A stretch of DNA of 64,000 bases from an uncultured Acidobacteriota bacterium (GCA_963713825.1 CAVQNG010000003.1:1024001-1088000), one strand, 5' to 3'; counted from the stretch's first letter, positions 14,767-60,488 are shown. Notes: generated from the sequence alone by a model not told the origin. Numbers and translations are program-made.

Positions 14767-15401
14767 TGTTGACAGAAAGAGGGAGTGCCTGGGGGGACAT
14801 CGTGGCGATGACCGCCGTGCTCCTGTCCTACATGTGGCTCTGGCAGCGGACCTTTGCTGGAGAGTTGTTCGTTTGCATAGCTCTGGTGGTAGGGCTGGCA
14901 GTTTGGAGCCATTGGCGCCGGGGCGAGACTCCACGCGACCTTGGGTTTAGGACCGACAATCTGGCTCCAGCCGCGATCAAGGTCTTTTCCTTTGTCGGTC
15001 CCTTGATTGTCTTCATCCTGATCGGTGGTGTTGCGCTGGGCACCTTTCGCGTCCCGGCCCGGGACGAGTTCTTGGCCAGACTGATTGTCTTGCCGCTGTT
15101 TGGCCTGGGACAGCAATACCTGCTGCTTGGTTTCTATCTGCGCCGATACGAGGAGGCGCTACCTGGAGAGCGACTGCCGATCTTGGCAACGGCCCTGACC
15201 TTCTCCCTTCTACACCTGCCGAACAGCTTTTTGGTCGGCGCGACCTTTCTGATTGGACTCGGTTCGTGTTGGCTCTACGGCCGGGCCAGGAATCTCTGGG
15301 TCCTGGGCCTTGCCCATGGCCTGCTGTCCCTGGCCTTTTCGGTCTCGATCTCCAAGAGCCTCGCCTCCGGAATGAAGGTTGGGTCGAGAGCGCTGAAGTG
15401 A
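14763..15401 (+). CDS. CPBP (CAAX/Abi-type) intramembrane protease-like protein, EE->QQ variant
   Basis: Multi-TM, DLGFR, GQQYLLLGF in place of EExxxR, FSLLH, AHGLL; ATGA overlap with upstream gene. Confidence 0.8.
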   Translation: MMLTERGSAWGDIVAMTAVLLSYMWLWQRTFAGELFVCIALVVGLAVWSHWRRGETPRDLGFRTDNLAPAAIKVFSFVGPLIVFILIGGVALGTFRVPARDEFLARLIVLPLFGLGQQYLLLGFYLRRYEEALPGERLPILATALTFSLLHLPNSFLVGATFLIGLGSCWLYGRARNLWVLGLAHGLLSLAFSVSISKSLASGMKVGSRALK

Positions 15402-15450
15402 GGCAGTGAAGCAGTGAGGCACTGAGGCAGTGAGGCAGTGAGGCAGTGAG
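15398..15450 (+). repeat. Octamer tandem array (GTGAGGCA) x6.5
   Basis: gtgaggca gtgaagca gtgaggca ctgaggca gtgaggca gtgaggca gtgag; first unit contains the TGA stop. Confidence 0.95.
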
Positions 15451-15456
15451 AGGGAA

Positions 15457-15488
15457 TAAGGGCGTAAGGGCTTAGGGGCGTAGGGGAT
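15457..15488 (+). repeat. Octamer tandem array TA(A/G)GGGC(G/T) x4
   Basis: taagggcg taagggct taggggcg taggggat. Confidence 0.9.
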
Positions 15489-15502
15489 AGAAAGCCCGTG
15501 GG

Positions 15503-15529
15503 TGAAGCGGCCGGTGCCCCTGCCGGCCG
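15503..15529 (+). repeat. REP-like family 2 hairpin
   Basis: TGAAGCGGCCGG-tgcccctg-CCGGCCG, 26/27 identical to 52690-52716. Confidence 0.85.
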
Positions 15530-15550
15530 TTTGTCCGTCTAACTGAGAAG

Positions 15551-15730
15551 TCGTCGCGTGGAGGTCCGTCCGCGTGGTCCGCAAGGGGACGGCGTCGTCC
15601 ACTCAGACTTTGATGAATGAGCCGCCACCTGCGCTCTCCGGCGCGCCGGATCTGTCGTGCACTTCGACGACTCTTGCGCTGCGCTTGTCGAGAGCCCCCC
15701 TGCGGACCACCCGAACGAACCTCTGGCACC
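15551..15730 (-). ncRNA. Putative structured RNA/ssDNA element, copy A
   Basis: Reverse complement aligns end to end with 34371-34546, with a long terminal stem and covarying inner stems. Confidence 0.65.
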
Positions 15731-16138
15731 ATTAGAGGCTAACGACCGCCAGGGCCGCCCCCACGATGAGTTCCTGGCGGGCTCAGATCGAGCAAGGGGT
15801 CTCCTTCGTCGGAGGGGCATGGTTGGGCAGGTCGCTGGTGCTTTCAGGCGGCTCGACATTGCTGGCGCCCACCGAAGACGGACCGGCGGTCATCAAGAGT
15901 AGCGTCAGGACCCAGAGTGTTGGGCGCACTGTCGCGATGCTACTCACCCCCTGTAGCTCGATCAACGAGAGGCTTGGCGCCCGGGGCAATGATCTTGGCG
16001 CCCGTAGCTATCTCTATCTTCGGTGATCTTCGCGAAACTGGAGTCAGTGGAGCTCGCTCTTTTCCCGGAACCTTGACCCTCGGCACGAGGCTAGGCCGGG
16101 GTGTTCCTTGTGGAGAGAGCGATCGAGGAGGTCTAGTA

Positions 16139-16735
16139 ATGGCGAATCAATGGTCCAAGAAAGCCAGTGGGAGCGAGGATTCGACAGCGCCACTTGGCGA
16201 CTCGGGCGAAAGCAACGAGCAAGCTCAATCCCGGTCAAGCGATCCAGTCGTTGTTGGTCTGTGCAGGGGGATGGTTGGTCTCAGCCTTGCTCTGCTCGTT
16301 GGTCTCATGACTTTGGCCTGGGTCCTGTTGCGCAGTGACATCGATTGGGACGCGTCGGTGGTCAAGGCGAGCCGTCGCGAGGCTCTTGTGGAAGCCTCCG
16401 ATGAGCCATCCAACGGTGAGGCGGCGACTGCGACAGCAGGCGTGATTCGGTTCGATTCGAGCCGATTGAATAGTGAGGGCCTGGTGGGCCCTCCTGACGG
16501 ACTGCGTGCGTTGAGCTACGAGTTCTGCATTCCGGCTGTCGAATCCCATGTCAGTGAGGTCGAGTCGATCGATTCGACGATTACGATTCAGCGCAGCTCG
16601 CCAGGCAGGATCGGCTGCGGGTCGGATGAGTATCTGGCGATCGGTAGCACCCACCAACCCGGGTTCCGGGAGGTTCTGGATCGACTCAGTCGCCTTCCCT
16701 ATGTGAACGAGATCCAAGAAGCCCATTTCGAGTAG
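16139..16735 (+). CDS. Membrane-anchored conserved hypothetical protein
   Basis: GAGGAGG SD before ATG 16139; one TM; compact C-terminal domain (GPPDGLRALSYEFCIP...SPGRIGC...GSTHQ). Confidence 0.7.
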   Translation: MANQWSKKASGSEDSTAPLGDSGESNEQAQSRSSDPVVVGLCRGMVGLSLALLVGLMTLAWVLLRSDIDWDASVVKASRREALVEASDEPSNGEAATATAGVIRFDSSRLNSEGLVGPPDGLRALSYEFCIPAVESHVSEVESIDSTITIQRSSPGRIGCGSDEYLAIGSTHQPGFREVLDRLSRLPYVNEIQEAHFE

Positions 16736-16839
16736 ATCTGCTGGTCCTTTCCTCTATCTTCTGAGCCGCTAACGGTCGCCTCTCACCGGGCCTCTTTGCG
16801 GAGTAGCCGGGTGCTACGATTGGCCCTCTTAAGAGGATT

Positions 16840-19768
16840 ATGGTGAGAGGCAATTCGGGATCCATTCCAACTCGGTCTTGGGGAGTTCTGCCGACTCTCC
16901 TCGCCCTAGGCCTGCTCTGTTCAGGCTCCATTCAGGCTCAGTTGAGGCCGCTTGCCCCGCAGCCTACCGAAGGGTGGCTGGTTATCGGCGACTTCACAGG
17001 CTCGGCCGACGTCGGTCTCAGGAGCCTGGTGAGCAACTGGTTCTTCGAGTACGAGCGAGGCGACAGTCTGTATCGGGACATGGGAGATCTCGGTGTCGGA
17101 ATCGGCGGCGATATCGGAGACGTGAGAGCGAACCTCAACTGGTACTTCCGGCGGCGGGTAGCGAGGTCGCAGGAAGTCAAGCCAGCCGGCTCGATGATTA
17201 CGGGCCAGGACATCTCCTACCTGAGCAATATCAATACCTCGCGGCTTCGACTGCGAGCCGACTGGAACTACCTCGAGAACACTGACGAATGGGCCTCCGT
17301 AGGTGTGCGAACCGAGGGTGGCTTTTCCGTGACGATGGCTCGCAAGCGTCAGCCCACGATCCATCTTCCCGAGTCCATACCTACCGAGGACCTCGATTCT
17401 CCATGGGCGGAATTCAAGGAGTTCTTCGTCGAGGAAGACGTCAATCTGCAGGAGAACAACGTCGTCTACGTCGGGGTGGGTTCCATGGCGGCGGTGGTGG
17501 ATGGTGCGGCGGCGGCCGCCGGCAATCGTTTCGCGAATACCGAGCACGCCGCAGTTTATTGGGACGAGTACTCCCGCCCCATGATGCTCTTCCCGGAGAC
17601 CGGAATCCCGGTCAAGCTGAGCGTCTTCACCGGTGACGATCCGACCCTGGCGGTCGGGGACTCCCTCAGGTTCTTGACGTTTGTGGGCCTTTCGCCGCTC
17701 GCCGCAGGAGTGGATCGATATGGAGTCCGGTTGGGGTATCAGCGGTATCTCCGGCTGTTGCGGGAAACAACAGTGGTCAAGGAGCCCGATGGCGAGGTAC
17801 TGGTCCGAGTTCGGGATTGGCGGGGCAATGGGAATGAGCTGACGCCCTTCAAGTACCGCCCCGAGGTCCGACTCTGGATCATCAGGCTCGGCTACACGTT
17901 CTTCGAATCGGTCGTCGATCGCTATCGGGAGAGAGTCTCCGATGTCACGTATCGCATCGATCTCGAGAGCGAGGCGGGGCTGGAGAGCTTCAAGCAGCTG
18001 CTCAAGAAGGGCGCCCGGGTGCGGGTGACTCCAGAGGTTCCGGGAGCCGAGCCGGAAGCCGAAGATGGTGTCGAGACTCTGTACACGGAGCTCGACCGCG
18101 GCAAAACCTATAACGCCCGGGTCAGAGCAAACTTCTTCGCCTGGTTCAACTATCACCTGCGGCAGTTGGGCAACACCCGCCGCATCGTGACCCGGGACGC
18201 TGAGTTCCGGGAGATCACGCGAGGTCGGATGAAGGACTTCTACAACGTGATCACGCAGAAGCGCAACGCGAAGCTGCGATCGGTGATCCGCGTCCAGTCC
18301 GACATCAACTGGTTCGACACAGAAGTCGCCGATGTCGCGCGAGAGGACGAGCGGTTGGCCACGACGATTACCACCAATATTTCATTGGGTTTTGCGAGTC
18401 AGGCAGAGGTGCGGACGTTGGTGAAGGGCGTCGGGGCGATCCTGGGCCTGAAGGAACTGGATCCGGCTCTGGGTGAGTTGATGCTTCGCAAGGTGGATGA
18501 CAGAACAGAGTTCGCTCTCGATATGGTCGTGAGCTTTGGGCCGAAAGAAATCAGCAGATTCGAAGGGGTTGCCGAGGACGACGTCTGGAGAGCGCTGGCG
18601 GAGCTCCTGTTGGGTCCCGAGCACGGGGAGGCCTGGGCGACTGCAACCGCTCGTCACTGGTGGGAACCTGGTGCTCCTGCCTATGTGGGGCCGCAGCCCT
18701 CGGTACGCCACATCGGCCTCTACTACGACAGTGTGCGAGGCTACGAGAAACCCCCCGCAGGGAATCGGTTCTTCGATCCGCAGTACAAGAGGAGCCAGAA
18801 GCTATACAGGATGGCGAAGAAGGCCGTGCGGAAATTCGATCGGTTGAAGGCAGCCTTCGGCGAGGAGAGTGACTGCCTCCAATGCCTGATCGACGGCTAT
18901 GCCACGGAGCTCGACTTCTACCTGATGCAGGCCTTGGCAGTTCGCTTTGGCGGCGGAGTCGAGGGAGGCGGCGTGGGTTTCGAATTCCGGTTCCTGCTCG
19001 GGGATATGACCAAACCCGTTGGTGGTTCCAACGATGTTCTGCACGGGTTTCATCTCGATTCGGCCGAGATCGTTCCAAACACCGAGACCATCCGTGATTC
19101 GCCTCCCCGCATCCGGAATGGGCAGGCCCTGCTCAACGTCATCTGGCTCCGAGCCGGAGTTGCAGGTGGCCAATGCTCCCTGCTGGAAGATCCGCCTTTT
19201 CAGCGACTACCTGTTTGCCGACGACCTGAGAGTCAGGTTGCAGGGGAGGAGATCCAAGAAGATCAAGAAAGACGAGACCCTGGTCACGCTTCTCCTCCCA
19301 CTCGGGAAGCCGAATCCCATCGAGGAGCTGCCCGAGATCGAGTTGGCCAGGGAGCTCTTCGACCCTCGGACCAAGATGAGTCTGAGCAGTGAGTATGCCG
19401 TCGGGCGAAACTACTCGGAGCATCTGGGAGGCGATGCTTCATGGGCCTCGGAGATGGAGCTGCCCGAGTACTTCTATGAGATCGACGTCCCCCCGGTAGA
19501 AGAATCGACTCTCGAGCAGGACTACACCGTCTTGCTCCGTGTCGTGAACACAATCGGTTTGCCAGTCACGGAGGAACAGGAGATTCGCCTACGAGTTCCC
19601 GAGGATTGGGCGGGGGAGGTTCCTGAGCATTGCGGGCTGCAGGTGATAGCCGCCACTTCAGGGCGAGCAAGGATGGCTCCCCAAGATCCCTCCCCTAATA
19701 CCCTAAGCCCTTCCTCAGTCGAGTGTGTCCATCTACTGCGCGGCCAACGGCGGTTCGAAGCGTCGTAG
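16840..19768 (+). CDS. Large exported hypothetical protein, ~975 aa (apparent indel near 19143 joins ORFs 16840-19392 and 19019-19768)
   Basis: AAGAGGA SD, signal peptide; protein-like composition switches frame at [12 protein letters not shown]; 3' end uncertain because it overlaps the copA stop. Confidence 0.65.
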
Positions 19769-23948: not shown

Positions 23949-25034
23949 TCAGTTTGCGACCAAGCTCGAGAACGCGGTTGTCCTGCGCTCCGCGAAGTCT
24001 CCAGCGGGACTACGCGTCAGGAAATAGGCTGCCAGACCGAGCTCTTCCGCCAGCTCATAGCCCTCGGGGCCGAGGACCAGCAGGGCGGTTGCGAACGCGT
24101 CTGCCTGCACGCACTCCCGATGGATAACCGTGACGGAGGCCACAGAGTGGCTGATGGGCCAACCGGTGCGAGGATCGATCGTGTGGGAAATGCGTTTGCC
24201 GCCCTCTTCGTAGTAGTTCCGATAGTCCCCAGAAGTGGCCATGGAGAGGTTCCTCAGCGGGATGACGACCTCAATCGCTTGCCGGCTGGGGTCGGGTTTT
24301 TCAATGGCGATCTGCCAAGGATTGCCGTTCGGGTTCGAGCCCAGGGTACGGATCTCGCCCCCGACCTCGACCATGTAGTGTTGGATGTCCTCGCTTTCCA
24401 GGGCTTCAGCCACCTGATCCACACCAAACCCCTTCGCAATCGCGGACAGATCCATGGTGAGCTGTGGAACGAGCTTGCGAACGGCAGGCCCGTCGGGCAG
24501 AAGCTGGAGGAACTCCCATCCGGTCATCATGAGCAATCGGTCGATGGCCTGCTGATCGGGTGCCTCGGTGGGCCTGCCGGGTGGTCCGAACCCCCAGGCG
24601 TCGACCAACGGTCCGATGGTGACATCGAAAGCGCCACCGGTGAGTTGGCTGATCCGGAGGGCGTGGTTGAGTACCTCGAAGGTCTCCTGTGAGATCGAAT
24701 AGGGCTCGACGCTGTGCCATTGGTTGAGCAGCGTCAATTCGGAATCGCCGAGGTAGTGGGACATCTTGGAGTTCACCTCGGCGAGCTTGCTCTGGATCAA
24801 CTTCTGGAGGACGGCTCGGCGCTCGTCGTCGAGGTCTTTGGCCACGACCTTGACCGTGTAATCGGTGCCCATCGTGGGCCCTGAGAACGTATGGAGCCGT
24901 GGCCCCTGGGGCCTCTGTCCGCAGGACAGGAGTAAACCTGTCGCCGCCAACAGGGGCAGCGACAGCCAGAGGAAGTAGGGCAATCGGGCAGTAGGGGCGT
25001 AGGGCTTCGAGACACTGCGGTCTATGCGGATCAT
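23949..25034 (-). CDS. apbE: FAD:protein FMN transferase
   Basis: TMGT, GAFDVTIGPL, DLSAIAKG, ATSGDYR, HTIDPRTG, ADAFATAL; lipoprotein LLSC. Confidence 0.95.
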   Translation of the reverse strand: MIRIDRSVSKPYAPTARLPYFLWLSLPLLAATGLLLSCGQRPQGPRLHTFSGPTMGTDYTVKVVAKDLDDERRAVLQKLIQSKLAEVNSKMSHYLGDSELTLLNQWHSVEPYSISQETFEVLNHALRISQLTGGAFDVTIGPLVDAWGFGPPGRPTEAPDQQAIDRLLMMTGWEFLQLLPDGPAVRKLVPQLTMDLSAIAKGFGVDQVAEALESEDIQHYMVEVGGEIRTLGSNPNGNPWQIAIEKPDPSRQAIEVVIPLRNLSMATSGDYRNYYEEGGKRISHTIDPRTGWPISHSVASVTVIHRECVQADAFATALLVLGPEGYELAEELGLAAYFLTRSPAGDFAERRTTAFSSLVAN

Positions 25035-25183
25035 TGCCGGATGGCCTTCCTGTCAGTTCCCATGCGAGAGGATCTCTCGTGAGACACCGTCCCTGACAGG
25101 TCTTGTCCTGTCCACCAACACCCTACTACCAGAGTACTAGGCCTGTCTGTGATCTCGGTGCTGGGGTCTGCGCCCCTGGGCCC

Positions 25184-25211
25184 CCAAGCCCCAGGACCCA
25201 AGTCCCAGGTC
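25184..25211 (-). repeat. Degenerate heptamer array (CCAGGAC family) x4
   Basis: ccaagcc ccaggac ccaagtc ccaggtc on +, ~16 nt past the nqrF stop. Confidence 0.75.
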
Positions 25212-25227: not shown

Positions 25228-26455
25228 TCACCCGAAATCGTCGTAGAGGACGTTCTCTTCTTCGACCCCCAGGTCCTCGAACATATTGCGGCAGGCCGAG
25301 AGCATCAGCGGCGGGCCGCACAGGTAGTACTCGATGTCCTCGGGGGCAGGATGGTCCTTGAGGTAGTTGTCGTAGACCACCTGATGAATGAAGCCGGTCA
25401 TGCCGGTCCAGTTGTCCTCGGGCAGCGGCTCCGAAAGCGCCAGATGCCACGTGAAGTTGGGGTGCTTCGCCGCGAGCTCGTCGAACTCGTCCTGATAGAA
25501 GGCTTCGCGCAAGCTGCGGGCTCCGTACCAGAATGTGATCTTGCGCTTGCTGTTCAGCCGCTTGAGCTGGTCGAAGATGTGGGAGCGCATCGGTGCCATG
25601 CCGGCACCACCACCGATGAACATCATCTCGGCATCGGTGTCCTTGGCGTAGAACTCGCCGTAGGGGCCGGAGATGGTCACTTCGTCACCCGGCTTGAGAT
25701 TGAAGATGTAGGAGGACATCTTGCCAGGTGGTGTGCCTTCGGGTGCTCTCGGCGGCGGCGAGGCTACCCGCACGTTGAGCAGAATGGTGCCTTTCTCCTC
25801 GCGGGTAGTTGGCCATCGAGTAGGCTCGCGTGACTTCCTCGTCCACCTTCGAAACGAAGCGCCACATGTCGAACTTGTCCCATTCTTCGCGGTACTCGTC
25901 GTCGATCACGAAGTCCTTGTACTTCGCTACGTGAGGTGGGCTCTCGATCTGGATGTAGCCGCCGGCCCGGAAGGGGACTTCGTCGCCTTCCGGGAGCTGC
26001 AGCTTGAGCTCCTTGATGAAGGTGGCGACGTTCTTGTTGGAGACTACGGTGCACTTCCACTTGCGGACACTGAAGACCTCGGGTGGCAGCTCGATTTCCA
26101 TGTCGCCTTTGACCTTGACCTGACAGGACAGGCGGACACCCTCTCGCGCCTCGCCCCGATTGATGTGGCTGACTTCGGTAGGCAGCATGGCGCCGCCGCC
26201 CTTCGTCACGGTGACCTTGCAGACTCCGCAGCTTCCCTTGCCGCCACAGGCCGAGGGGATGAAGATCTTGTTGCCCGACAGCGTGCCCAGCAGAGTGCTG
26301 CCCGCAGCTGTCTTCAGAGCCTTGTCCATATCGTCGTTGACGAGGATGGTCACCTCGCCCGTGGCCACCAGCTTGCTCCGGGCAACCATGAGGAACGCCA
26401 CCAACGCCACGATGACGAAGGTGAACATGAATACGCCGAGTGCGATGGTAGTCAT
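25228..26455 (-). CDS. nqrF: Na+-NQR subunit F (apparent +1 indel near 25801)
   Basis: [12 protein letters not shown] [2Fe-2S], [28 protein letters not shown]; one extra base separates NYP from [11 protein letters not shown]. Confidence 0.95.
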
Positions 26456-26459
26456 GGTT

Positions 26460-27077
26460 CTAGAGTTGGATTCCACCAAAGGCCATGAAGCCGATGGCCA
26501 TCAGGCCGGTGATAATGAATGTGATACCCAGGCCGCGCAGCGCAGCCGGAATGTCGTGATAGCGAAGACGCTCGCGAATGGCCGCCAGCGCCACAATAGC
26601 CAGGGCCCAACCTATCCCTGAGCTGATGCCGAAGACCGTGCTCTCGGCGAGGGTGTAGTCACGCTCCACCATCCAGAGCGATGCACCGAGAATGGCGCAG
26701 TTGACCGCGATGAGCGGTAAGAAGACACCCAGGGCGGCATAGAGCTTCGGCATATAGCGATCGAGCACCATCTCGACGATCTGGACCATGGCAGCGATGG
26801 TGCCGATGTAGGTGAGGAAGCCGAGAAAGGAGAGGTCGTACTGGGCCAGATTCGGGCTGATCCAGGCGAGCGCACCCTCTTGCAGCAAATAGTTGTAAAT
26901 CAGGTTGTTCATCGGCACCGTGATGCCGAGCACGAAGATGACGGCGGAGCCCAGACCGAGGGCGGTCTCGACCTTGCGGGAGACGGCGAGGAACGAGCAC
27001 ATGCCCAGGAAGAAGGCAAGGGCCATGTTCTCGACGAAGATGGATTTGACGGCGAGGCTCAGATAGTGCTCTACCAT
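26460..27077 (-). CDS. nqrE: Na+-NQR subunit E
   Basis: [35 protein letters not shown]. Confidence 0.96.
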
Positions 27078-34180: not shown

Positions 34181-34214
34181 CGTTCTGGGCCCCGGGCGAC
34201 GGATCTGGTCGTGT

Positions 34215-34293
34215 GGGGGTCCGACGCGGGGCCCCCAGGGGGCTATCCTCCCTTCCGCTGCAAGAACCCCCTGGAGGTCCCCACGCCGAACCC
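34215..34293. repeat. Long imperfect inverted repeat between convergent genes
   Basis: GGGTCCGACGCGGGGCCCCCAGGGGG ... CCCCCTGGAGGTCCCCACGCCGAACCC. Confidence 0.6.
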
Positions 34294-34328
34294 TTGGAGC
34301 CGCTGTAGGTCCCCTGCAGAGCTGTTTA

Positions 34329-34358
34329 CCCCTACGCCCCTAAGCCTCTAAGCCCTTA
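34329..34358 (-). repeat. Octamer array (CCCCTA(C/A)G on +) x~4
   Basis: cccctacg cccctaag cctctaag ccctta. Confidence 0.85.
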
Positions 34359-34370: not shown

Positions 34371-34546
34371 GTGCTAGAGGTTCGTTCGGCTGGTTCGTCA
34401 GGGGGTGCCACGTCGAGCGCAGCGCAAGGTCCATTGAAGAGCACAATAGATCCGGCGCGATGACGTGACAAGGTGGCGGCCCACCCATCGCAGTCTGAGT
34501 AGCCGACGCCGTCCCCCAGGCGAGCCAGCCGGACGGGCCTCTACAC
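34371..34546 (+). ncRNA. Putative structured RNA/ssDNA element, copy B
   Basis: Homologous to reverse complement of 15551-15730; ~25-bp terminal stem with several G-U pairs. Confidence 0.65.
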
Positions 34547-34597
34547 GACAACCGCTGCAGGAGGTGATTCGATGGGTCGGCAGGGACGCCGGCTGCC

Positions 34598-43811: not shown

Positions 43812-45593
43812 GTGACCTCTCGCCCCTTGCGCCCTCACTGCCTCTAGGCTTGGCCTCACTGCCTCACTGCCCTGCTGGCATTGCTGCTCTTCGTATCGCC
43901 TGCTCAGCCCCGACGCCATCATCATCACCAAGGCGATGACGGCTTCGACGATCGCAGAGGTCTTTGTCGAAGAGGGGAGGATCCTCGTCGAGATCGAAAT
44001 CGGGGGGCAGGATCTGGAGGGTTTCCGCAACCTGATGCCGGACGCGGTCTACCGGAGAATGGGACACGAGTCCCGGCCTGGGGCCGGAGCGGCTCGCGGA
44101 GTTCTTTCAGCCAGGACCTGGTGATTCGCGCCGATGGGGGCTCGCCCTTGAGCGGCCGTCTGGTTTCGATCGAGCCCCGAGAACGGGTGCCGCGGGACGA
44201 GATCACGGGTGATCCGCTCCCCGTCCCAGAGGGAGAAGGCGAGCCGGTGGTCTTCGCGGTTCTGGAGTACCCGCTGTCGCGACGGCCCGAGGAAATGTCA
44301 ATCTGCGCCACCGACCGGTGAAGGAGGCGTCAGCCAGGCGAGCATCGGCTTCATGACCTACCACCACGAGATTCCGGTCAACGACTTTCGATATCTCAGC
44401 ACCGAAGAGGTCCTGGATCTGGACTGGTCGGATCCCTGGTATTCGGCGTTCCGAAATCGGAATCTGCGACGGCAGTACGACGCACCAATGAACGCCTTCC
44501 TATACGTCGAGCCCTACGAGGTGCGTACCGAGATCATCGCCCGCCCGTTGGATCTCCAGCGCTGGGTGGACCTGGGTCTTGAGGGTCTCGAGACGATTCC
44601 GGTCGAGATGCAGTACGAATTGAATCAGAAGGTGGCCGCATTTCTTGGCCGAGCACCAGAACCTGACCATCGACGGACAGCCCGTCCGGCCAGAGCTCGA
44701 CCGGGTGAACTTTCTGCGCCGAACGCTCCGCACCAGTCGGTGATCGACCCTCCCGAGGAGCTGGACATCTACTCGGCCACCCTCGGAGTGATCTTCGTCC
44801 ATCCCACCGAAGGTCTGCCACAGGAGGCCAGCCTGACCTGGGACCTGTTCGACGAGAGAATCCAGCGGGTGCCCGGTGCGGCCACCGACGAGGCGGGGCC
44901 GCTGCGGTTCTTCCTGGTACCGGACGACAATATCCTGTGGTGGAAGAATTTCCTCAAAAACCCGACCATTCCGACCCTGGTCGAGCTGGCTCCGCCACCG
45001 AGCCTCGGGTTGCGGGTCCTGGGCTGGTCGAGCTGGCTGATATTGGTGCTGTTTCTCGGAACGATCGTGATGATGGTCCGGACTTTCGTCCGCGAGCGGA
45101 CCGTCCCTCGAAGGGCAATTACCGTTTCAATCCTGCTGCTTCTGGCAGCAGGAGCCGCTTTTGCGGCAACCCTGCCCAGCCGCATGACCGATGAAAAAGC
45201 CGAAGGGATGGTGGCCGGCCTGCTCCACAACATCTACCGCGCCTTCGACTTCCGCGGCGAGGAGGCGATCTACGATGTTCCTCGATCGCAGCGTCAGCGG
45301 GGAGCTCCTGACCGAGATCTATCTCGAGACCCGGCGCGGGCTGGAGCTGGCCAGTCAGGGCGGAGCTCGAGCGAAGGTCAAGGACATCGAGCTGCTCGAG
45401 GTCGAGTCCCGGCCACTCGAGGGAAGGCAGGGCATCGCCGCCCACACGCAAATGGAACGTCTCCGGATCCGTGGGCCACTGGGGTCACGTCCACACGCGG
45501 ATCAACCAGTACGAGGCCGACTTGACCATAGAGCCTGTCGATGGCCTCTGGAAGTTGACGGGCCTCACCATCCTGCAGGAAGAGCGACTCTAG
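43812..45593 (+). CDS. Conserved exported/membrane hypothetical protein with multiple apparent indels
   Basis: Fragments in alternating frames (DAIIITKAMTASTIAE..., LDWSDPWYS, EPYEVR, LHNIYRAFDFR, GSVGHWGHVHTR, EERL-TAG); start uncertain. Confidence 0.6.
43833..43872 (-). repeat. Degenerate GTGAGGCA-family array (CCTCACTG on +)
   Basis: cctcactg cctctagg ...cctcactg cctcactg at the 5' end of the hypothetical gene. Confidence 0.6.
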
Positions 45594-49681: not shown

Positions 49682-50271
49682 ATGAGGAAGAGTTCATAGC
49701 TGTTGTCAGTGTTATCGCAGTGTTGGTCTTGGCGCTAGGTGCGATGCCGGCCGCCGCCAAGAAGAAGCGACAATCATAGAGAGCTTCGAGGCCAATGCGA
49801 TCATGCAGACCGCCGGCGCGGGATCGATGGCGACAATCAACATCTACCGCTGGTCGAGCGATGCCGAGCGGGACGAACTTCTCGGGGTCATCAAGAGCGC
49901 GACCGCAGGCGACCGTGAAGTTGCCCAGGCCTTGCGTGGTCAGGAGAAGGCGGGGTATGCCTTCATGTCGGGTAGACAGGGCTATCCTCTGCGCTATGCG
50001 CGCGAGTTCAAGACGGAGGATGGCAGGCGGCAAGATCATCCTGGCCACCGATCGCCCTGTCATCGTTCCAGGAGGGCTATACAGGACAGCATGGCGGGTG
50101 ATTTCGACGTCACCATCATCATCCTGACACGTGGATGAGAACGGCAAGGGCGACGGCATTCTCTCGTATGGTACCGAGGTCAAGTGGGACGACAAGACCG
50201 GCAAGATCGAGCCGACGAACATGTCTTCGCAGCCGATCAAGCTGACCAACGTTCGACCGAGAAAAGAAGTA
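49682..50271 (+). CDS. Exported hypothetical protein with several apparent indels; paralog of 54498-55124
   Basis: GAGGAGG SD; fragments INIYRWSSDAER, GYPLRYAREF, GDGILSYGTE, SSQPIKLTNVRP match the paralog. Confidence 0.7.
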
Positions 50272-50296
50272 GACTGTCTTCAGGCCTACGCTTGTG

Positions 50297-50331
50297 ACCC
50301 CCGACCTGGCTTCCGCCGGGTCGGGGGTTTT
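50297..50331 (+). terminator. Intrinsic terminator
   Basis: ACCCCCGACCTGGC-ttcc-GCCGGGTCGGGGGT followed by a T run. Confidence 0.85.
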
Positions 50332-50402
50332 GTGTTCCCAGCTCGGTCATGCGACCAGCTGGCCCCTCGACACGAACGATGAGCTTCTTCTAAGGTGAGC
50401 CG

Positions 50403-52599
50403 ATGAGCCAGGAAGATGGAAAGCGGTCCTCAGAGAGCCCACAGAAGAAGCCTCGCTTGAGTCCCACCGCCAAGATCCTCTTGAGCCTTTCCCTCGGGAT
50501 CGGCGTGGGCCTCTTCTTCGGAGAGCCGGCGGGACGGCTGGGCGTGGTGGGAGATGTCTATGTCGGGTTGCTCCAGATGACGGTGCTGCCCTTCATCACG
50601 CTCTCTCTGGTCGCCAATATCGGTCGTTTCTCACTGCAGGACGGGGCGAAGCTCATGCGGGCCGCGGCGATCGTCATGCTGGGCCTCTGGGTCCTGGGTC
50701 TGATCACGATAGCGATCGTTCCGATCTCGTATCCTCCCTTCGAGACCGGTTCGTTCTTCAGCACAAGTCTGATCGAGGCTCAGGAAGCGCCGGATTTTCT
50801 GGGCCTGTATGTGCCTTCGAACCCCTTTCACTCGTTGTCCCAGAACCTGGTTCCCGGAGTGGTGCTCTTCAGCATTCTGCTGGGACTGGCCCTGGCGGGT
50901 CTCGATCGCAAGCAGTTGGTCCTCGACCAGATGGACGTCCTGATGCAGGGACTGATGGGCGTCAACAAGTTCGTCGTTCGACTGAGCCCTGTCGGAATCT
51001 TCGCCATCGCAGCCAGCGCGGCGGGCACGATCACGCTGGCGGAGTTCGGCAGGTTGCAGGGCTACATCATCAGCCACACCCTCCTCGCGGTCATTCTGGC
51101 GTTGTGGGTCCTGCCCATGGTCGTGGCGGTACTGACCGGACTGCGCTACCGGACGGTTCTGAGTGCGTCCAAAGAAGCGGCTTTGACTGCTTTCGTCATC
51201 GGCAGCGTATTCGCGGTACTGCCCATGTTGATCGACAGCATCGAGAAGCTGCTGATGGAGGACGACTGGGATCCGAAGGACTCGACGGTAGCACCGGAGA
51301 TCCTCGTTCCCCTCGCCTATCCCTTCCCGACGTTGGGTAAGCTCTCGAGCCTGCTCTTCATCCCCTTCTCGGCCTGGTTCGTAGGTAGCTCCATCGATGC
51401 GGGCCAGATGCTGGTCTTTCTGACTTCGGGTCTGTTCAGCTCGTTCGGCAGCCTGGTGGTGACCATCCCATTTCTTCTCGACCTGCTGCACCTGCCCTCC
51501 GACATGTTTCAACTCTTCATGATGGCCGGAGTCTGGTCGGCCAGGGTCAGCGATCTGCTCGGCATCATGAGTCTGTTGGCGTTCAGCATTCTCACCGCCT
51601 ACGCCATCAAGCGCAGGATCTCGATCCACTGGCGGCAGCTTGCCGGAGCACTGGTCATCGGTGCCCTCTTGATGGGTGGCGCGATGCTGGGGACGCGGGT
51701 CTACCTGAAGACCACCTTCGAGGGTGCCTACAAGAAAGCGGACATCCTGGATCGCATGCACCTGCTCGAGCCGCTGGTACCGGCGGCGGTCCTGGACGAG
51801 CCCGCACCCAACCCGATTCCTCTGCAGCCGGGGGAGTCGAGGATCGATCGGGCCCGGAGAGAGAGGGTTCTGCGAGTCGGGTTCGATCCACAGCGACTTC
51901 CGTTCTGCTTCTTCAATCACCGCCAGGAGTTGGTGGGTTTCGATATCGACATGGCGCATCGCATGGCAGCCGATTTCAGGGTGGAGTTGGTGTTCGTACC
52001 CTTCCGCAACGAGACCCTGGTGACGCAGCTCGAGGAGGACCATTTCGACATCGCCATGTGTGGGCTCGGCGGCACGTTGAGGCGGGCATCTCGGCTCATG
52101 TTCTCGGACTCCTATCTCGACGTGACGCTGGCGGCGGTAGTCGAGGATCACCGTCGCAAGGACTTCCTGAATCGGGCGACCATCGAGCGCATCGAGAACC
52201 CGAAGCTGGCCTTCCTCGAAGGGAGCTACTTCGAAGAGAGGATCAGGACACGCGTTCCCGATGTCGACTACGTGGCGCTCGAATCAGAGGCGGAGTTCTT
52301 CGAGATGTCGGGGGAGGTCGATGCTCTGGTGACGAGTGCCGAAGCCGGAGCCGCCTGGGCTCTGTTCCACCCCGGCTACGCGATGGTCAATCCCATCCGT
52401 CCGCCGGTGAAGATTCCCCTGGTCTATCCCTTGGGTTCCGACGATGGTTATTACTACTCGCTCATCAACGACTGGATCGATCTGAAGAAGAAGGACGGCA
52501 CGGTCGACACCCTCTTCGCCTCACTGGATCCTGGGCAAGGGGGCTGAGGACAGGCGTCCCCGGTGGAGTGTGATGCGCGACGTTCTGGGTTGGGAGTAG
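50403..52599 (+). CDS. Dicarboxylate/amino acid:cation symporter fused to a family-3 substrate-binding domain (apparent indel near 52520)
   Basis: LLQMTVLP, PSNPFHSL, SPVGIFAIAA (SDF); LRVG...LPF...GFDIDMAH (SBP3); shifted frame ends HWILGKGAEDRRPRWSVMRDVLGWE-TAG. Confidence 0.87.
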
Positions 52600-52622
52600 C
52601 TTTTCCCGCCCGCGCACCCAGG

Positions 52623-52678
52623 CTTAGGGGCTTAAGGGCTTAGGGGCGTAATGGCCTAGGGGCTGAAGGGCGTAGAGG
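52623..52678 (+). repeat. Octamer array (C(T/G)TAGGGG family) x7
   Basis: cttagggg cttaaggg cttagggg cgtaatgg cctagggg ctgaaggg cgtagagg. Confidence 0.9.
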
Positions 52679-52689
52679 CTTGAGCCGCT

Positions 52690-52750
52690 TGAAGCGGCCG
52701 GTGCCTCTGCCGGCCGGGGCGGGTGGATGGGGATCGACCTGTGCCGGCCG
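52690..52750 (+). repeat. REP-like family 2 hairpin plus half-copy
   Basis: TGAAGCGGCCGG-tgcctctg-CCGGCCG, then GACCTGTGCCGGCCG at 52736-52750. Confidence 0.85.
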
Positions 52751-52765
52751 ACGATCGTGCAGGGG

Positions 52766-53626
52766 CTACTGTGAAGAGGCCGGGAGCGAGTCGAAGAACT
52801 CCATGATCGCTTGGCCTGCCTCCTTCGGCCACAAGTGAGGGTAGAACTCACCGCGGCGATTCGTGTCCTCGGTGTGAGGGCACCAGACCACCGGGTTCAC
52901 GGCATCGGGAGGTCCGTAGCACTCACAATTCAGAGCTTGTGGTGGACACGACCGAGCCGGCGGCTCGAGGCCGTTCTGGTCGAGGGCCTGGTCTCTCGCA
53001 TGGAGGCCACGTGACAATGGGACCAGGTCGTCGTGGGGGTTGTGCAGGATCATGGCCGCCGCGGGGCCGCTGCAAAGGGAGCCCGCGATCGGCCCGCAAC
53101 GGTGCCAACTCCACGGATGACCGATCCACGGGCGCAGCCGAGGCTGTTGGCAAAGCTCGCGCCCAGCGAATGGCCGACGACAAAGACCTGGTCGAGATCG
53201 AGGCAGTAGGAGGAGCTGAAGAGCTCGAGAAGCGCGTCGAAGAAAGCGTAGTCCCGAAGGGAGTCACCAGACTGCCCGGGCTCATACCAGCTGTACTGGC
53301 CGTCCTCTCCTAGCAGCCCGGCGGGGTACACGACGATCGTTGGCGATCGTTGCGCTCTGCTCGATCTCGAAGTACCGCTGCACCTGGCCATTGGGTGTGG
53401 TGCGTCCGTGGAAGGCGACGATCAATCGGTGAGCCAAGGCCGGGTCGTACGACGACGGAATCGAGGTGATGAATTGGCGGCTCACGTCGCCAACGTCTGT
53501 CGTGGAGAGTGGGTCTACGGGTGGTGCGCTCCCACAGCCGTCGGAGCGGTGCCCTGCTGTGTCGGACCCGAAGCTTGGCGCGGCGATCTGCAGGACCAGC
53601 AAACAGATCGGTGCGAGGGTCTTCAC
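52766..53626 (-). CDS. Exported alpha/beta-hydrolase esterase (LpqC/PHB-depolymerase-like; apparent indels near 53340 and 53075)
   Basis: SDGCG, VAFHG, VVYPAG, GHSLG nucleophile, HNPHDDLV, HLWP in three overlapping frames. Confidence 0.8.
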
Positions 53627-54432: not shown

Positions 54433-54497
54433 CACCCTGCCGGTCCTTTCCCCAGTGGCCCAGTTCGTCGACTCGAACAACCGTGGGGTCTTGTCTC

Positions 54498-55124
54498 TCA
54501 CTTCTTGCTGGGGCGAACGTTGGTCAGTTTTACCGGCTGTGACGAGAAGTTGGTGACCCCGATCTTGTCTTCGGACTCGTTCCAGACCAGTTCGGTACCG
54601 ACCGATGCGACACCCTCGCCATTGCCGGAGGAATCGAGGTTCAGAACGATGACGGTGACGTCGAAGTCTTGAGCCTGGGAGCCGGTGTAGACCTCCGAAA
54701 AGGTCACCGGTCGTTCGAGGCCGAGAATGATCTGCCGGCCGCTGCTGGTTTCGAACTCTCGCGCATACCGAATGGGCCAACCCTGCTCGCCCATGAGGAA
54801 CAGAACGCCCGCCTTGCCCAGCTTTCTCAGCGTCGTCGAGACCCCGCGCATTGAACGGTTGCGCGAATTATCGGTGGCCTCTTTGATCGCATCCAGGACC
54901 GTCTCGCGATCCTCGTCGCTCGTCCAGCCATAGATGTTCATCGTCAGGATCGAGGAGTTCGCCTGGCCAGGACTATCCATGACCATCACGTTGGCGGTGA
55001 AGCTCTCGATGATCTCCTTCTTCTTGGCCTGCGAGGGAGCAGGGGCAAGCAGCGCTGCGATGAGCAGCACTGCAGCCGTCACCGTTGCGAAACTGCTGAC
55101 ACGGTTTCTCGAAATATCCGTCAT
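54498..55124 (-). CDS. Exported hypothetical protein; paralog of 49682-50271
   Basis: AAGGAG SD, signal peptide, GWPIRYAREF, SSQPVKLTNVRP. Confidence 0.8.
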   Translation of the reverse strand: MTDISRNRVSSFATVTAAVLLIAALLAPAPSQAKKKEIIESFTANVMVMDSPGQANSSILTMNIYGWTSDEDRETVLDAIKEATDNSRNRSMRGVSTTLRKLGKAGVLFLMGEQGWPIRYAREFETSSGRQIILGLERPVTFSEVYTGSQAQDFDVTVIVLNLDSSGNGEGVASVGTELVWNESEDKIGVTNFSSQPVKLTNVRPSKK

Positions 55125-55265
55125 CTGGATCTCCTTGAGACTTGTATGGAAAGCAGCAGGGGTTTGCTGGTTTCTAGCGCTCCAACACAACTACCCTAGC
55201 GCTACGAAGCGAAAGCAGCAAGAGTTGCACCAGCAGTCTCTTGGCAGGCTGCATCCACGGCTTGA

Positions 55266-55319
55266 TGTAGGGGCGGGGCTTGCCCCCGCCCGCGGGAGGG
55301 CGCAAGGCCCTCCCCTACA
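55266..55319. repeat. GTAG-type REP doublet (REPIN)
   Basis: TGTAGGGGCGGGGCTTGCCCCCGCCC-gc-GGGAGGGCGCAAGGCCCTCCCCTACA: two palindromes in inverted orientation with GTAG/CTAC feet. Confidence 0.88.
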
Positions 55320-55335
55320 ATTCTCGGTGCCTGTG

Positions 55336-56685: not shown

Positions 56686-56924
56686 GAATTCTCCTCCAAG
56701 TTCGGTTCAATGAAGATCAAGGCGTAGTCGAATATCAGAAGCTGCCGGCCGAGGGCTTCGGTCGGCAGCTGTCTCCTAGCTACTTAGACGCAGGAACAGG
56801 GTAAAGGGTTTGCCCAAGTTTGCTCGGTTTGACCAACCGAGCTGCAATAGGTCACAGGCGCCACGGTTTCTGAGTTTGACTGTCGAGTCTTTGCGAGCGT
56901 GCCGCTTCGGGTTAGTGTTACCTG

Positions 56925-56959
56925 CCAGGACCCAGGACCCAGGACCCAGGACCCAGGAC
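56925..56959 (+). repeat. Perfect heptamer array (CCAGGAC) x5
   Basis: Ends 4 nt before ATG 56964. Confidence 0.97.
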
Positions 56960-56963
56960 CCTC

Positions 56964-57665
56964 ATGATCTCCATCTCCGAACTCCGCTTTCACTACTCCC
57001 AGGGTGGATTCGCCCTGTATGTGCCCGAGTTGGTGGTTGAATCGGGTGAGCGAGTCGCCGTCATCGGACCCAGCGGATCCGGCAAGACCACCCTGTTGAA
57101 CCTCATCGCCGGGATTCACTCGCCGCAGTCGGGCAGTGTGATCACCAACCAAGTGGACATCTCGGGCCTCGCCGACGGGGCGCGTCGCGATTTCAGGATC
57201 CGCAATATCGGCCTCGTCTTCCAGGAATTCGAGCTCCTGGAGTATCTGAATGTCGTCGACAACATCCTCCTGGCCTACAGGATCAACGGGTCGCTCGAGC
57301 TGAACAAGGAGGTTCGCCAGAGGGCAGTCGAGTTGGCAGAGATGATGGGCATCGGCGACAAGGTGAGCCGCAACGTCCGGCGGTTGTCGCAGGGAGAAAA
57401 ACAACGCGTCGCCGTGTGCCGGGCACTGCTCGCCGAGCCGCCGTTGCTTTTGGCGGACGAGCCCACCGGTAACCTCGATCCGACCAACAAGGACAAGGTC
57501 CTGGACATCCTGATCGAGTACGCCGAGTCGAAGGGCTCGACCCTGGTCACCGTCACCCACGATCACGACCTTCTCTCCCGCTTCCAACGCGTCATCGACT
57601 TCAAACAGTTCTACGACCTCCCAGCGCAGAACCCCAGGACCCAGGACCCAGGACCCAGGACCTGA
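56964..57665 (+). CDS. ABC transporter ATP-binding protein (LolD/MacB-type)
   Basis: GPSGSGKT, LSQGEKQRV, LADEPTGNLD, VTHD. Confidence 0.95.
   Translation: MISISELRFHYSQGGFALYVPELVVESGERVAVIGPSGSGKTTLLNLIAGIHSPQSGSVITNQVDISGLADGARRDFRIRNIGLVFQEFELLEYLNVVDNILLAYRINGSLELNKEVRQRAVELAEMMGIGDKVSRNVRRLSQGEKQRVAVCRALLAEPPLLLADEPTGNLDPTNKDKVLDILIEYAESKGSTLVTVTHDHDLLSRFQRVIDFKQFYDLPAQNPRTQDPGPRT
57634..57661 (+). repeat. Perfect heptamer array (CCAGGAC) x4
   Basis: Encodes the PRTQDPGPRT tail of the ATPase; ends 3 nt before ATG 57665. Confidence 0.97.
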
Positions 57666-58846: not shown

Positions 58847-58850
58847 GAAG

Positions 58851-58910
58851 GGCTTGGGTCCTGGGCCCTTGGGAGGGCTTAGGGGCGTAGGGGCTTTAGG
58901 GCGTAGGGGG
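58851..58910 (+). repeat. Inverted heptamer units (GTCCTGG family) followed by octamer array TAGGGGCG
   Basis: ggcttgg gtcctgg gcccttgg, then taggggcg taggggct ttagggcg taggggg. Confidence 0.9.
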
Positions 58911-58915
58911 TGAGC

Positions 58916-59275
58916 TTAGGAGCTGGTTCTGCGAACGCGAATCAAGGCAGTGAGAGCAGCGGAGGTTCTACGACAGAGAACCTCCAGTTCCTCGAAGGCC
59001 TCCCCGCCAAGGAAACCGAGATCGCGACTGAGCTTGATGTAGTAGCTCAATTCTCGAAGCGACCCGAGGGCACATTCGAGGAATCGAGCGTACTCCTTTT
59101 CGCTAAATCGGGCGCAGCCTTCGACAATGTTCGCAGAGACCGAGACGGCACTTCTTCGCATTTGAGATACGAGGCCATAGCGCTCATGTCCGGGGAAGTG
59201 CTTCGTCTCGCGGTATGTAAGGATTACGAGACTGTGGGCGAGCTTGAAGGTGCTCAGCTTTCGGTGGTCTCTCAC
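58916..59275 (-). CDS. Four-helix-bundle protein (23S rRNA IVP / Avd-like family)
   Basis: RDHRKL, FP.HERYGLVSQMRRSAVSVSANIVEG, FL..ALGSLREL, DLGFL; GTG start inferred. Confidence 0.93.
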   Translation of the reverse strand: MRDHRKLSTFKLAHSLVILTYRETKHFPGHERYGLVSQMRRSAVSVSANIVEGCARFSEKEYARFLECALGSLRELSYYIKLSRDLGFLGGEAFEELEVLCRRTSAALTALIRVRRTSS

Positions 59276-59354
59276 TGTTCGATCGCGCCCTCTTGGAGTG
59301 ACGAAAAAGGGGCACAAGTTCTTCTAGTGGCACTAACTGTGGAGAAGCAGACTC

Positions 59355-60326
59355 GTGACGCATCAACTTCAGAAGTATTTCCTGCCGATAGTTGCCTTGG
59401 CCTTTTGTGCATGTGGTCCCAGTGATCCGTCAGGGGAGTCAGGCTCGGGCACTTCCCCTACGCCCTCAAGCCCCTACGCCCCTACACCCCTGTCCGTCTA
59501 CACCACCAACTACCCCCTCGCCTACTTTGCCGAGCGGATTGGTGGTGAGCAGGTCGAAGTGGTGTTTCCTGCGCCGGCCGATGTGGACCCCGCCTACTGG
59601 GCGCCTGAGCCAGAGGTGATCGCAGAGTTCCAGGAGGCGGACCTCATCCTGCTGAACGGCGCCGGCTACGAGAAGTGGATCGAGAGGGCGAGCCTGCCAG
59701 CGAGCAAGCTCGTCGATACCTCGGCGGCGATGGAGAGCAGCTACATTCCGCTGGATGATGGTGTCGTTCACACGCATGGCCCCGAGGGCGAGCATTCACA
59801 CAAGGGGTGGGCCTTCACGACCTGGCTGGATCCGATGATCGCCATTGCGCAGGCGCAGGCCATTCAGGAAGCGCTTGCCGAGTTGCGCCCGGTGGCTGCG
59901 GAGGACTTCCGGGTCGCTTACGAGGGGCTTCAAGCCGATCTCTTGGTCCTCGATGCACAACTAGGGAATGTCGCTGCCGACCTCGGCGACCGTCCCATCC
60001 TCTTTTCCCATCCTGTCTACCAGTATCTCGATGAGCACCTCGGCTTGAATGGCGAGGCGGTTCACTGGGAGCCTGGCGAGATGCCGACCGAGGAGATGTG
60101 GGGAGCCCTCGCAACCTTGCTGCAGTCACATCCCGCGGAGCTCATGGTCTGGGAAGGGGAGCCGCTCGAGGCGGTGAAGAGTCGCCTGGCGGGATTGGGG
60201 CTCCAGAGCGTGGTCTACAACCCTTGTGGCAACGCGCCTGAGAGCGGCAACTACGGATCGGTGATGCTCCAGAACGTCGCCAACCTGCAGGCGGTTGCTG
60301 GGTCCGACTCTGGAGAGGCGAATTGA
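59355..60326 (+). CDS. ZnuA/TroA-type metal ABC substrate-binding lipoprotein
   Basis: Lipobox FCAC, ADLILLNGAGYEKW, His-rich loop HTHGPEGEHSH, TWLDP, SHP.YQYL. Confidence 0.9.
   Translation: MTHQLQKYFLPIVALAFCACGPSDPSGESGSGTSPTPSSPYAPTPLSVYTTNYPLAYFAERIGGEQVEVVFPAPADVDPAYWAPEPEVIAEFQEADLILLNGAGYEKWIERASLPASKLVDTSAAMESSYIPLDDGVVHTHGPEGEHSHKGWAFTTWLDPMIAIAQAQAIQEALAELRPVAAEDFRVAYEGLQADLLVLDAQLGNVAADLGDRPILFSHPVYQYLDEHLGLNGEAVHWEPGEMPTEEMWGALATLLQSHPAELMVWEGEPLEAVKSRLAGLGLQSVVYNPCGNAPESGNYGSVMLQNVANLQAVAGSDSGEAN
59455..59490 (-). repeat. Octamer array inside the SBP N-terminal linker; inverted partner of 58880-58909
   Basis: cccctacg ccctcaag cccctacg cccctaca cccc, encoding SPTPSSPYAPTP. Confidence 0.9.
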
Positions 60327-60467
60327 AGATTGGCGGTGGCCGGAAGACAAGCAGGCAGCGCCTGAATCGACCGAACATGCCGGTGGGCCTTTCCGCTCGG
60401 CTATTTGGGGGCAGTTATCCTGGCTGCCGGATACTTCTTGCTGCGGTACTGAAGAGCCAGCCGATAC

Positions 60468-60488
60468 CCAGGACCCAGGCCCCGGGAC
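60468..60488 (-). repeat. Degenerate heptamer array x3
   Basis: ccaggac ccaggcc ccgggac on +, ~9 nt past the SIMPL stop. Confidence 0.7.

Follow-up and report, generated by a model that had tools for sequence, protein, structure and literature searches.

How does a short tandem repeat come to stand with one strand behind stop codons and with the other strand at start codons? The question is raised by a stretch of 64,000 nucleotides (nt) from the genome of an uncultured Acidobacteriota bacterium of the Thermoanaerobaculia (G000:C3:1024001-1088000; this whole stretch is called the window here). A preliminary description of the window had reported arrays of 7- or 8-nt units which, read along the nearest transcript, are G-rich after stops and C-rich at or just after starts. 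It had explained them as a marking system for pairing of mRNA ends or for protein binding, possibly linked to a four-helix-bundle protein. The observation is correct and significant, and the pairing and four-helix mechanism is mostly wrong. The arrays clearly represent a fresh case, now in Thermoanaerobaculia, of a class of repeats that has been published but not explained.

The arrays were analyzed throughout the source genome (G000), a 5.42-Mb draft of 38 contigs with about 61% GC and 96% completeness. A custom hexamer-score caller gave 4581 genes that cover 89.7% of the genome; these calls are not a curated annotation and the starts are approximate. Tandem Repeats Finder (TRF) supplied the arrays; those of period 7 or 8 were kept from 2.8 copies upward and merged. 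An array is called G-sense or C-sense when its G-rich or C-rich strand, respectively, lies in the sense of the nearest gene. For the polarity counts, the nearest gene boundary had to lie at most 60 nt from the array, and G-sense was scored against C-sense.

The units consist of a run of three to four C (G on the opposite strand) plus about four other bases, which results in a period of 7 or 8. Three families were distinguished. Their C-rich forms are CCCAGGA (H), CCCCTAAG / CCCCTACG (O1) and GCCTCACT (O2). On the other strand, H reads GGGTCCT and O1 reads GGGGCTTA/GGGGCGTA, both with a tandem G-tract of three to four bases; the O2 unit AGTGAGGC has GG only and matches a G-tract of this length just loosely. 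Several families thus occur side by side, the octamers CTTAGGGG, CGTAGGGG and AGTGAGGC alongside the heptamer GGGTCCT. Genome-wide, 174 arrays were detected (60 O1, 39 H, 8 O2 and 67 with other units, among them many one-step variants, for example CCCCAGGA, CCCCAAGA and CCCCAAG). At period 8, 45 arrays had at least four copies, whereas a Markov copy of the genome (third order) contained 0, and at period 7 the numbers were 24 and 3. The most frequent tract number was 4 in O1 (23 of 60) and 3-4 in H (13 and 13 of 39); detection may account for part of this mode, because shorter arrays fall below the TRF score threshold.

In a genome that is about 90% coding, 110 of the 174 arrays were intergenic, and for O1 alone 51 of 60. 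When gaps of at least 30 nt were sorted by type, the three families contributed 38 arrays to 401 convergent gaps and 43 to 1732 tandem gaps, compared with just 8 in 617 divergent gaps. The polarity seen in the window held in the genome-wide scan. At stops 27 G-sense and 12 C-sense arrays were counted, at starts 0 and 12 (Fisher p=1.7e-5). Among the families, H was the strongest (stops 12:3, starts 0:7, G:C; Fisher p=7e-4). O1 gave 10:9 at stops and 0:5 at starts (Fisher p=0.053), so that G-sense never occurred at starts, and O2 gave 5:0 and 0:0. Dropping near-duplicates (7 of 173 rows) left stops at 27:11 and starts at 0:12 (p=1.1e-5); arrays in paralogous genes and duplicated contigs were removed in part only.

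Further counts describe the placement more closely. In tandem gaps, 17 of 18 sense-G arrays were closer to the stop of the upstream gene, with a median distance of 22 nt, and sense-C arrays were split 13 vs 12. Arrays within coding sequence were C-sense in 15 of 16 cases. Not all of these are independent, because several lie in paralogous kinase genes. Four of five O2 arrays overlapped the stop codon, and a start codon lay 1-4 nt from the array in 5 of the 12 listed start-proximal arrays. Polarity by replication strand was considered as well: the G-form was on the locally G-rich (leading) strand in 63 cases vs 44 (p=0.08). This reading was dropped because genes are co-oriented at least as strongly (2325 vs 1801).

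Five further genomes of the genus (G001-G005, the congeners) were compared, with syntenic DNA aligned site by site. Their 123,366 bases contained 40 period-7/8 arrays, which were scored blind; 13 of them were more than 60 nt from any boundary. The others gave 16 G-sense and 1 C-sense at stops and 0 and 10 at starts (p=1.3e-6), including sites that have no array in the window. Because the loci compared are orthologs of those in the window and the genomes are related, the result replicates the rule and does not count as an independent sample. At nine window sites with alignable flanks, most congeners had an array in the same place and polarity with a different unit; units seen at aligned sites include CCCAGGA, CCCCAAGA, CCCCTACG, CCCCTAAG and GCCTCACT. 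That place and polarity are kept and the unit is swapped is consistent with selection for a property of the strand and not for a sequence. Together with the intergenic bias, the excess in convergent over divergent gaps and the polarity, the kept places also bear out the view that these arrays are not random microsatellites. The arrays of the window and their state in the congeners are as follows.

15397-15450, plus strand: O2 array, (AGTGAGGC) x6.8 (TRF), G-form in the sense of the CPBP gene and overlapping its TGA stop; G003 and G004 have O1 units only past this stop.
15457-15486, plus strand: O1 array, TAAGGGCG x3.8 (TRF), G-form (TAAGGGCG / CTTAGGGG), directly 3' of the O2 array.
19690-19715, minus strand: about three degenerate O1-type units in the convergent gap on the 3' side of copA, G-form in copA sense, about 170 nt past its stop, seen by eye without a TRF call; polarity kept in G004, G-run units on the opposite strand in G002.
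24986-25008 (TRF 24986-25004), minus strand: C-form array in apbE just past the ATG, encoding KPYAPTA in the signal-peptide n-region; O1-like in the window, O2 units in G002-G004.
25183-25209, minus strand: H-like array (TRF), G-form in nqrF sense, about 19 nt past the nqrF stop; G-form arrays kept in G003 and G004, a remnant in G002.
34180, a stop: G-form arrays in G003, G004 and G005, none in the window.
34329-34355, minus strand: O1 array, CCCCTAAG x3.4 (TRF), G-form on the minus strand, in a convergent gap on the 3' side of a copy of the dispersed element E170 (see below).
43791, porin stop: directly past it, about 4 G-form units in G003 and about 14 in G004, none in the window.
43833-43871 (TRF 43853-43871, GCCTCACT x2.4), plus strand: O2/O1-type array, C-form, upstream of the next plus-strand gene.
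52621-52681, plus strand: O1 array, GGCTTAGG x7.6 (TRF), G-form, 74 nt past the DAACS stop, with a hairpin module directly 3'; G004 has just two GGTCTTGA-type units between flanks of 95-96% identity.
56925-56961, plus strand: H array, CCAGGAC x5.3 (TRF), C-form, ending 3 nt before the ABC ATPase ATG; (CCAGGAC)5 in the window corresponds to (CCCCTACG)2-4 in G001-G003 and (CCCCAAGA)5 in G004, so that a C-sense array is found in 4/4 congeners and the unit of the window in 0/4.
57633-57662, plus strand: H array, CCCAGGA x4.3 (TRF), C-form, coding for the ATPase C-terminal tail and abutting the permease ATG; this ATPase/permease junction has about 9 O1 units in G003, an octamer/heptamer mix in G004, about 3 degenerate units in G001 and one unit in G002.
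58851-58909 (TRF 58875-58909), plus strand: H-like units and then O1 units, G-form, beginning 5 nt past the permease stop; G-form arrays in G001, G003 and G004, none in G002.
59455-59491, plus strand: O1 array (TRF), C-form, within a ZnuA-type lipoprotein gene, encoding a Pro-rich linker after the lipobox Cys; C-form repeats with differing units in 4/4 alignable congeners.
60466-60488, minus strand: H array (TRF), G-form in SIMPL sense, 10 nt past the SIMPL stop; kept in G003 and G004, not in G001 and G005.

With the exception of the weak copA site, all array sites of the preliminary description were recovered by TRF, and its names for the flanking genes agree with Pfam. The Pfam matches are Rce1-like CPBP, E1-E2 ATPase plus HMA (copA), ApbE, an NqrF fragment, SDF (DAACS), ABC ATPase, MacB-type permease, ZnuA-type binding protein and SIMPL, and the functions of these window genes have no relation to each other. 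No Rfam family matched within the window at the gathering threshold. The claim that some arrays are translated as Pro-rich stretches also stood: we found the linker SPTPSSPYAPTP in the lipoprotein (59455), KPYAPTA at the ApbE N-terminus (24986) and NPRTQDPGPRT* in the ATPase tail (57633).

The H pattern (three units, at most one mismatch) occurred in 5/5 other genomes of the genus, in 0/19 genomes of other genera of the family and in 1/16 further genomes of the order; a control with the pattern read backwards is void for H, as CCCAGGA reversed is its own rotation. The O1 pattern was present in 6/201 genomes sampled across the class, G000 counted, and was abundant in G000 and G004 only. At the ABC-operon sites outside the genus, no such arrays were seen in 18 non-congener loci (22 inspected of 80 fetched). 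Five other loci (L043, L049, L050, L053 and L055, at about 3150-3260 in each) carry a different repeat, of CGCAGAT(C/T/A)A type, at the ATPase/permease junction. These belong to other Thermoanaerobaculales and Sulfomarinibacter metagenome-assembled genomes (MAGs), and at least one has an extra small gene at the junction.

The class to which the arrays belong was described by Rehm et al. (2015; PMC4692102). There, G-quadruplex-forming heptamers are reported from Xanthomonas (GGGAATC) and Nostoc PCC 7120 (GGGGA(C/T)T), in excess in non-coding DNA and scarce between divergent open reading frames. Their G-rich strand is antisense just upstream of reading frames and sense just past stops, within 50 bp. 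The positions were common to two Xanthomonas species in 83% of cases, with length and sequence varying; the flanking genes had no common function, and the function of the repeats was left open. Further criteria for the class are a preference for four units (four G-tracts), transcription of the repeats and G-quadruplex formation in vitro by circular dichroism spectroscopy. Our arrays are alike in their tandem G-tract units, genome-wide spread, non-coding excess, scarcity between divergent genes, unrelated flanking genes and polar placement (27:12 vs 0:12; in the congeners 16:1 vs 0:10), and in keeping their positions in related species with changes of length and sequence. They differ from those repeats by their occurrence in another phylum (Thermoanaerobaculia, Acidobacteriota), by being mostly octamers with several families together, and by wholesale unit replacement at conserved sites. 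They also differ by a close tie to E170 and hairpins, which Rehm et al. did not observe, and the G-quadruplex (G4) is here predicted from an energy model. In a limited literature search, no report of such repeats in Acidobacteria was found.

Other known repeats resemble the arrays in part. The short tandemly repeated repetitive (STRR) heptamers of heterocystous cyanobacteria are lineage-specific, intergenic tandem arrays with C/G-tracts. In this they are like the arrays described here, while their units differ, as also the Nostoc part of PMC4692102 indicates. TAACTGA direct repeats are present in marine Beggiatoaceae, cyanobacteria and Bacteroidetes in 2-6 copies, mostly a few nt upstream of starts and in one orientation, and according to the abstract a post-transcriptional role was proposed (MacGregor 2015; PMC4679880). 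These are likewise heptamer arrays just before starts, and the genes downstream show no functional pattern; in contrast to our arrays they are AT-rich without G/C tracts, and the abstract has no 3' class of opposite polarity (PMC4679880). Heptamer repeats are also reported to affect recF and recO expression in Nostoc (bioRxiv 10.1101/2022.06.06.494920). Phase-variation microsatellites share slippage-prone tandem repeats at gene ends and 5' regions. They differ from the present arrays, which have 7-8 nt units, accompany housekeeping and transport genes rather than surface antigens and, where coding, lie in linkers, some of them kept across species.

What sets the strand at each place? On balance we think it rather likely that the arrays are lineage-specific simple sequence repeats of the G-quadruplex-prone hepta/octanucleotide class and that the strand is set by selection on the mRNA. 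Slippage, and probably also conversion between loci, would lengthen or shorten the arrays and alter their units, and the site at 52621 argues for replacement. Which strand survives at a given place would depend on its effect on the mRNA. Close to starts and within genes, the message would tolerate no strand but that with the C-tracts, which is G-poor, presumably weakly structured and read as Pro-rich linkers; the C-form heptamer could in addition supply AGGA beside the ATG. The G-tract strand in these places would bring TAG or TGA in every frame (octamers) or a fold that blocks initiation. Past stops it would be harmless or useful: abutting octamers could re-supply a stop in all three frames, and a G-rich 3' untranslated region might form a G-quadruplex or another stable structure and act like repetitive extragenic palindromic (REP) elements at mRNA 3' ends. 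The least supported step is the 3'-end role that the post-stop G-form may have through an RNA or DNA quadruplex. Two computed properties bear on this mechanism. The G-forms of O1 and O2 contain TAG or TGA in each unit, so that all three frames are stopped within three units; such arrays should be barred inside genes, whereas at the end of a gene they would do no harm. The 5' C-array at 56915-56975 folds with -9.5 kcal/mol compared with -12.4 +/- 2.5 kcal/mol for shuffles (ViennaRNA), which is no better than the shuffles.

Several results weigh against this explanation. All gene boundaries come from the crude custom caller. The heptamer is free of stop codons on both strands and yet is the most polar family; the stop-supply argument therefore misses it, and its polarity needs an explanation at the RNA level. 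At stops, O1 is unbiased (10:9), and the G-runs of O2 and GAGGTCTT-type units are no longer than GG. With G4 terms in ViennaRNA, a quadruplex was part of the minimum-energy fold at 3/6 G-sense sites, at energies within the shuffle spread, and G4 motifs outside arrays had no polarity (stops 23:32, starts 10:8). As these motifs are unpolarised, avoidance of G4 alone is insufficient for the rule, and with the predicted folds in addition we rejected G4 as the sole driver. Finally, E170 was found within 200 nt of 35/91 intergenic three-family arrays. The arrays are thus tied to dispersed elements, so part of the pattern may stem from how these elements insert.

E170 is about 170-190 nt long, with 103 nhmmer matches in the genome, 89 of them at least 100 nt long. 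Three more modules accompany it: the 80-nt E2 (32 copies), the GTAG-headed double hairpin E3 (88 copies) and a GC hairpin followed by T's. Arrays and modules together form mosaics after stop codons that resemble bacterial interspersed mosaic elements (BIMEs), in the usual order stop, G-array and then hairpin, E170, E2 or E3. In the window the modules are found at these places.

15503-15530, plus strand: GC-rich hairpin module, GAAGCGGCCGG...CCGGCCG then TTT, which recurs beside arrays and is found again at 52686-52726.
15545-15740, plus strand: E170 copy (dispersed element of about 170-190 nt).
34186-34325: E2, the 80-nt dispersed module.
34375-34560, minus strand: E170 copy (dispersed element).
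55258-55326: E3 element, GTAG-headed double hairpin.

The arrays might then be modules of a mobile REP/BIME-like mosaic (E170, E3, GC hairpin), with a polarity that comes from oriented insertion or co-mobilisation at gene 3' ends and not from selection acting on the arrays. We consider this unlikely. The closeness of E170 to intergenic arrays speaks for it, as do the O1 arrays near E170, which have the G-form on the E170 strand in 23/24 cases, mostly on its 3' side. Moreover, 44/89 E170 copies lie in convergent gaps, 39/44 of them closer to the same-strand gene, the modules regularly stand 3' of G-sense arrays, and the O1 unit GTAGGGGC is identical to the first 8 bases of E3 (55258-55326). The array at 52621 differs from G004 in unit and length inside a stretch of 95-96% identity, which looks more like replacement than slippage. 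That stretch, window 49716-53500 against G004:C214:15906-19622, stands out from the remaining syntenic region (76-89%) and suggests, from identity levels, a recent exchange between the lineage of the window and G004; the array is the sole part of it that does not align. Against the mosaic stands the polarity that remains when E170-adjacent arrays (within 200 nt) are removed from the de-duplicated set (stops 20:10, starts 0:11, p=1.6e-4). Where C-sense arrays occur at starts or inside genes, these elements are not beside them, no target-site duplications were seen, and Rehm et al. found their repeats to be unconnected with mobile elements (PMC4692102). The genome has four Y1 transposase-like genes, and none of them has arrays or copies of E170, E2 or E3 within 600 nt.

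REP and BIME elements of enterobacteria, and REPIN-RAYT systems, are mosaics of short modules in 3' intergenic regions, often near stops and transcribed with the upstream gene. Like REPs, E3 has a GTAG head and a GC palindrome; the arrays differ in being tandem 7-8-mers, not palindromes, and no array-flanked RAYT (REP-associated tyrosine transposase) was found. A link to RAYT was rejected on the basis of the four PF01797 matches in the genome, which lack neighbouring arrays and modules as stated above. These Y1_Tnp paralogs are about 313 amino acids long with an HxH-like motif (SNHYHLL).

7156-8097 of the window, plus strand: Y1_Tnp (PF01797) gene.
C5:482970-483911, C3:1296426-1297361 and C3:1152154-1153095 of G000: further Y1_Tnp (PF01797) genes.

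Could the two forms act on each other, or be read by a protein? The preliminary description had proposed that the C-form 5' end of an mRNA pairs with the G-form 3' end of the same molecule, which closes the transcript and controls translation or stability. A C-form 5' and a G-form 3' array do coincide in the ABC operon (56925, 57633, 58851) and in one kinase gene (C3:1773796, 1776609), and in silico any C-form pairs strongly with any G-form. However, a single array was found in 136 array-bearing directons (73 C-sense, 63 G-sense), with C upstream and G downstream in a handful only, and in the ABC operon of G002 the 5' array has no 3' counterpart. When duplex energies were predicted across species in a 5x5 matrix, the 5' and 3' arrays of one species did not pair best with each other; the G003 5' array, for example, gave -85.7 with the G000 3' array compared with -58.0 with its own. 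There was no species-specific complementarity. The pairing model found no support, and we regard it as very improbable. The proposed four-helix-bundle link fails because the genome has exactly one such gene compared with more than 100 arrays.

58916-59275, minus strand: PF05635 gene (four-helix-bundle, 23S rRNA intervening-sequence protein; Pfam), outside the repeat system.

This gene lies between the permease and binding-protein genes in G000 and G001 and is absent in G002, where the two genes are adjacent; as judged from synteny, it behaves like an insertion between them. More generally, the arrays could be actively maintained cis-regulatory sites at which at least one dedicated nucleic-acid-binding protein recognizes the periodicity of C- or G-tracts; a poly(C)-binding protein, a G4-binding protein and Rho on C-rich leaders are candidates. 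Place and polarity kept over five species despite unit turnover, and arrays adjoining start codons, are in agreement with this. So are the near-start heptamer repeats proposed as regulator sites in Beggiatoaceae (PMC4679880) and the recF/recO expression effects reported in Nostoc (bioRxiv 10.1101/2022.06.06.494920). Nevertheless, the four-helix-bundle gene is single-copy, a search for CsrA was negative, and no candidate was found. Units at one site are so unlike (CCCAGGA vs CCCCTACG) that only very loose specificity fits, and the flanking genes are functionally unrelated. A protein reader is therefore quite unlikely in our estimate. CsrA had been tried as a reader of the GGA-bearing heptamer and was rejected, as the 96% complete genome has no PF02599 match.

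A stronger version of selection on the strand can also be formulated, and we hold it to be doubtful. The arrays would be a selected structural punctuation that is independent of exact sequence and is renewed by conversion between loci, with the result that units drift but neither place nor strand changes. Past a stop, a periodic G-tract on the non-template strand might then set or protect the transcript 3' end through an RNA or DNA quadruplex or an R-loop, and a periodic C-tract leader might leave the start codon accessible and couple transcription with translation. If this were true, Xanthomonas, Nostoc and Thermoanaerobaculia would have reached a convergent solution, and the exchange of units at fixed sites would provide, for the first time, comparative evidence of selection on a property and not on a sequence.

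A few observations concern individual arrays and genes. The same array with identical flanks of at least 115 nt is found at C13:32971, C14:15242 and C16:16320 of G000, as duplicated segments or assembly redundancy. In paralogous Ser/Thr-kinase-like genes of G000, in-frame H arrays lie between the HPNIV and LV.E..EG motifs, some with an E3-like hairpin beside them; they appear to code for a variable loop insertion in the kinase domain.

C21:5656, C5:71331, C25:232181, C3:310184, C5:47312, C5:107811 and C14:132386-135038 of G000: in-frame H arrays in kinase genes.

The nqrF gene of the window is split into two overlapping frames on the minus strand, with Fer2 in 25685-26479 and the NAD-binding domain in 25228-25773. 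The apparent frameshift at 25685-25850 may reflect a genuinely broken gene or a fault of the assembly. Part of the stretch occurs in 20 public sequencing runs; three RNA runs among them hold 5-10% of the sampled words.

The arrays have a practical and a general meaning. They mark gene ends and starts in these MAGs, and the variable Pro-rich linkers and C-terminal tails that they encode may mislead annotation pipelines. The question of what bacterial G-tract hepta/octanucleotide repeats do dates from at least 2015. The comparative picture obtained here is sharper than that of a two-species comparison, since site and strand are kept and the unit is replaced, even within a stretch of 95-96% identity. 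The alignments point to the G-tract or C-tract property of the strand in the mRNA as what probably matters. With this genus, the same placement rules appear independently in another phylum and on unrelated units, which argues for a general constraint or function and not for an accident of one lineage.

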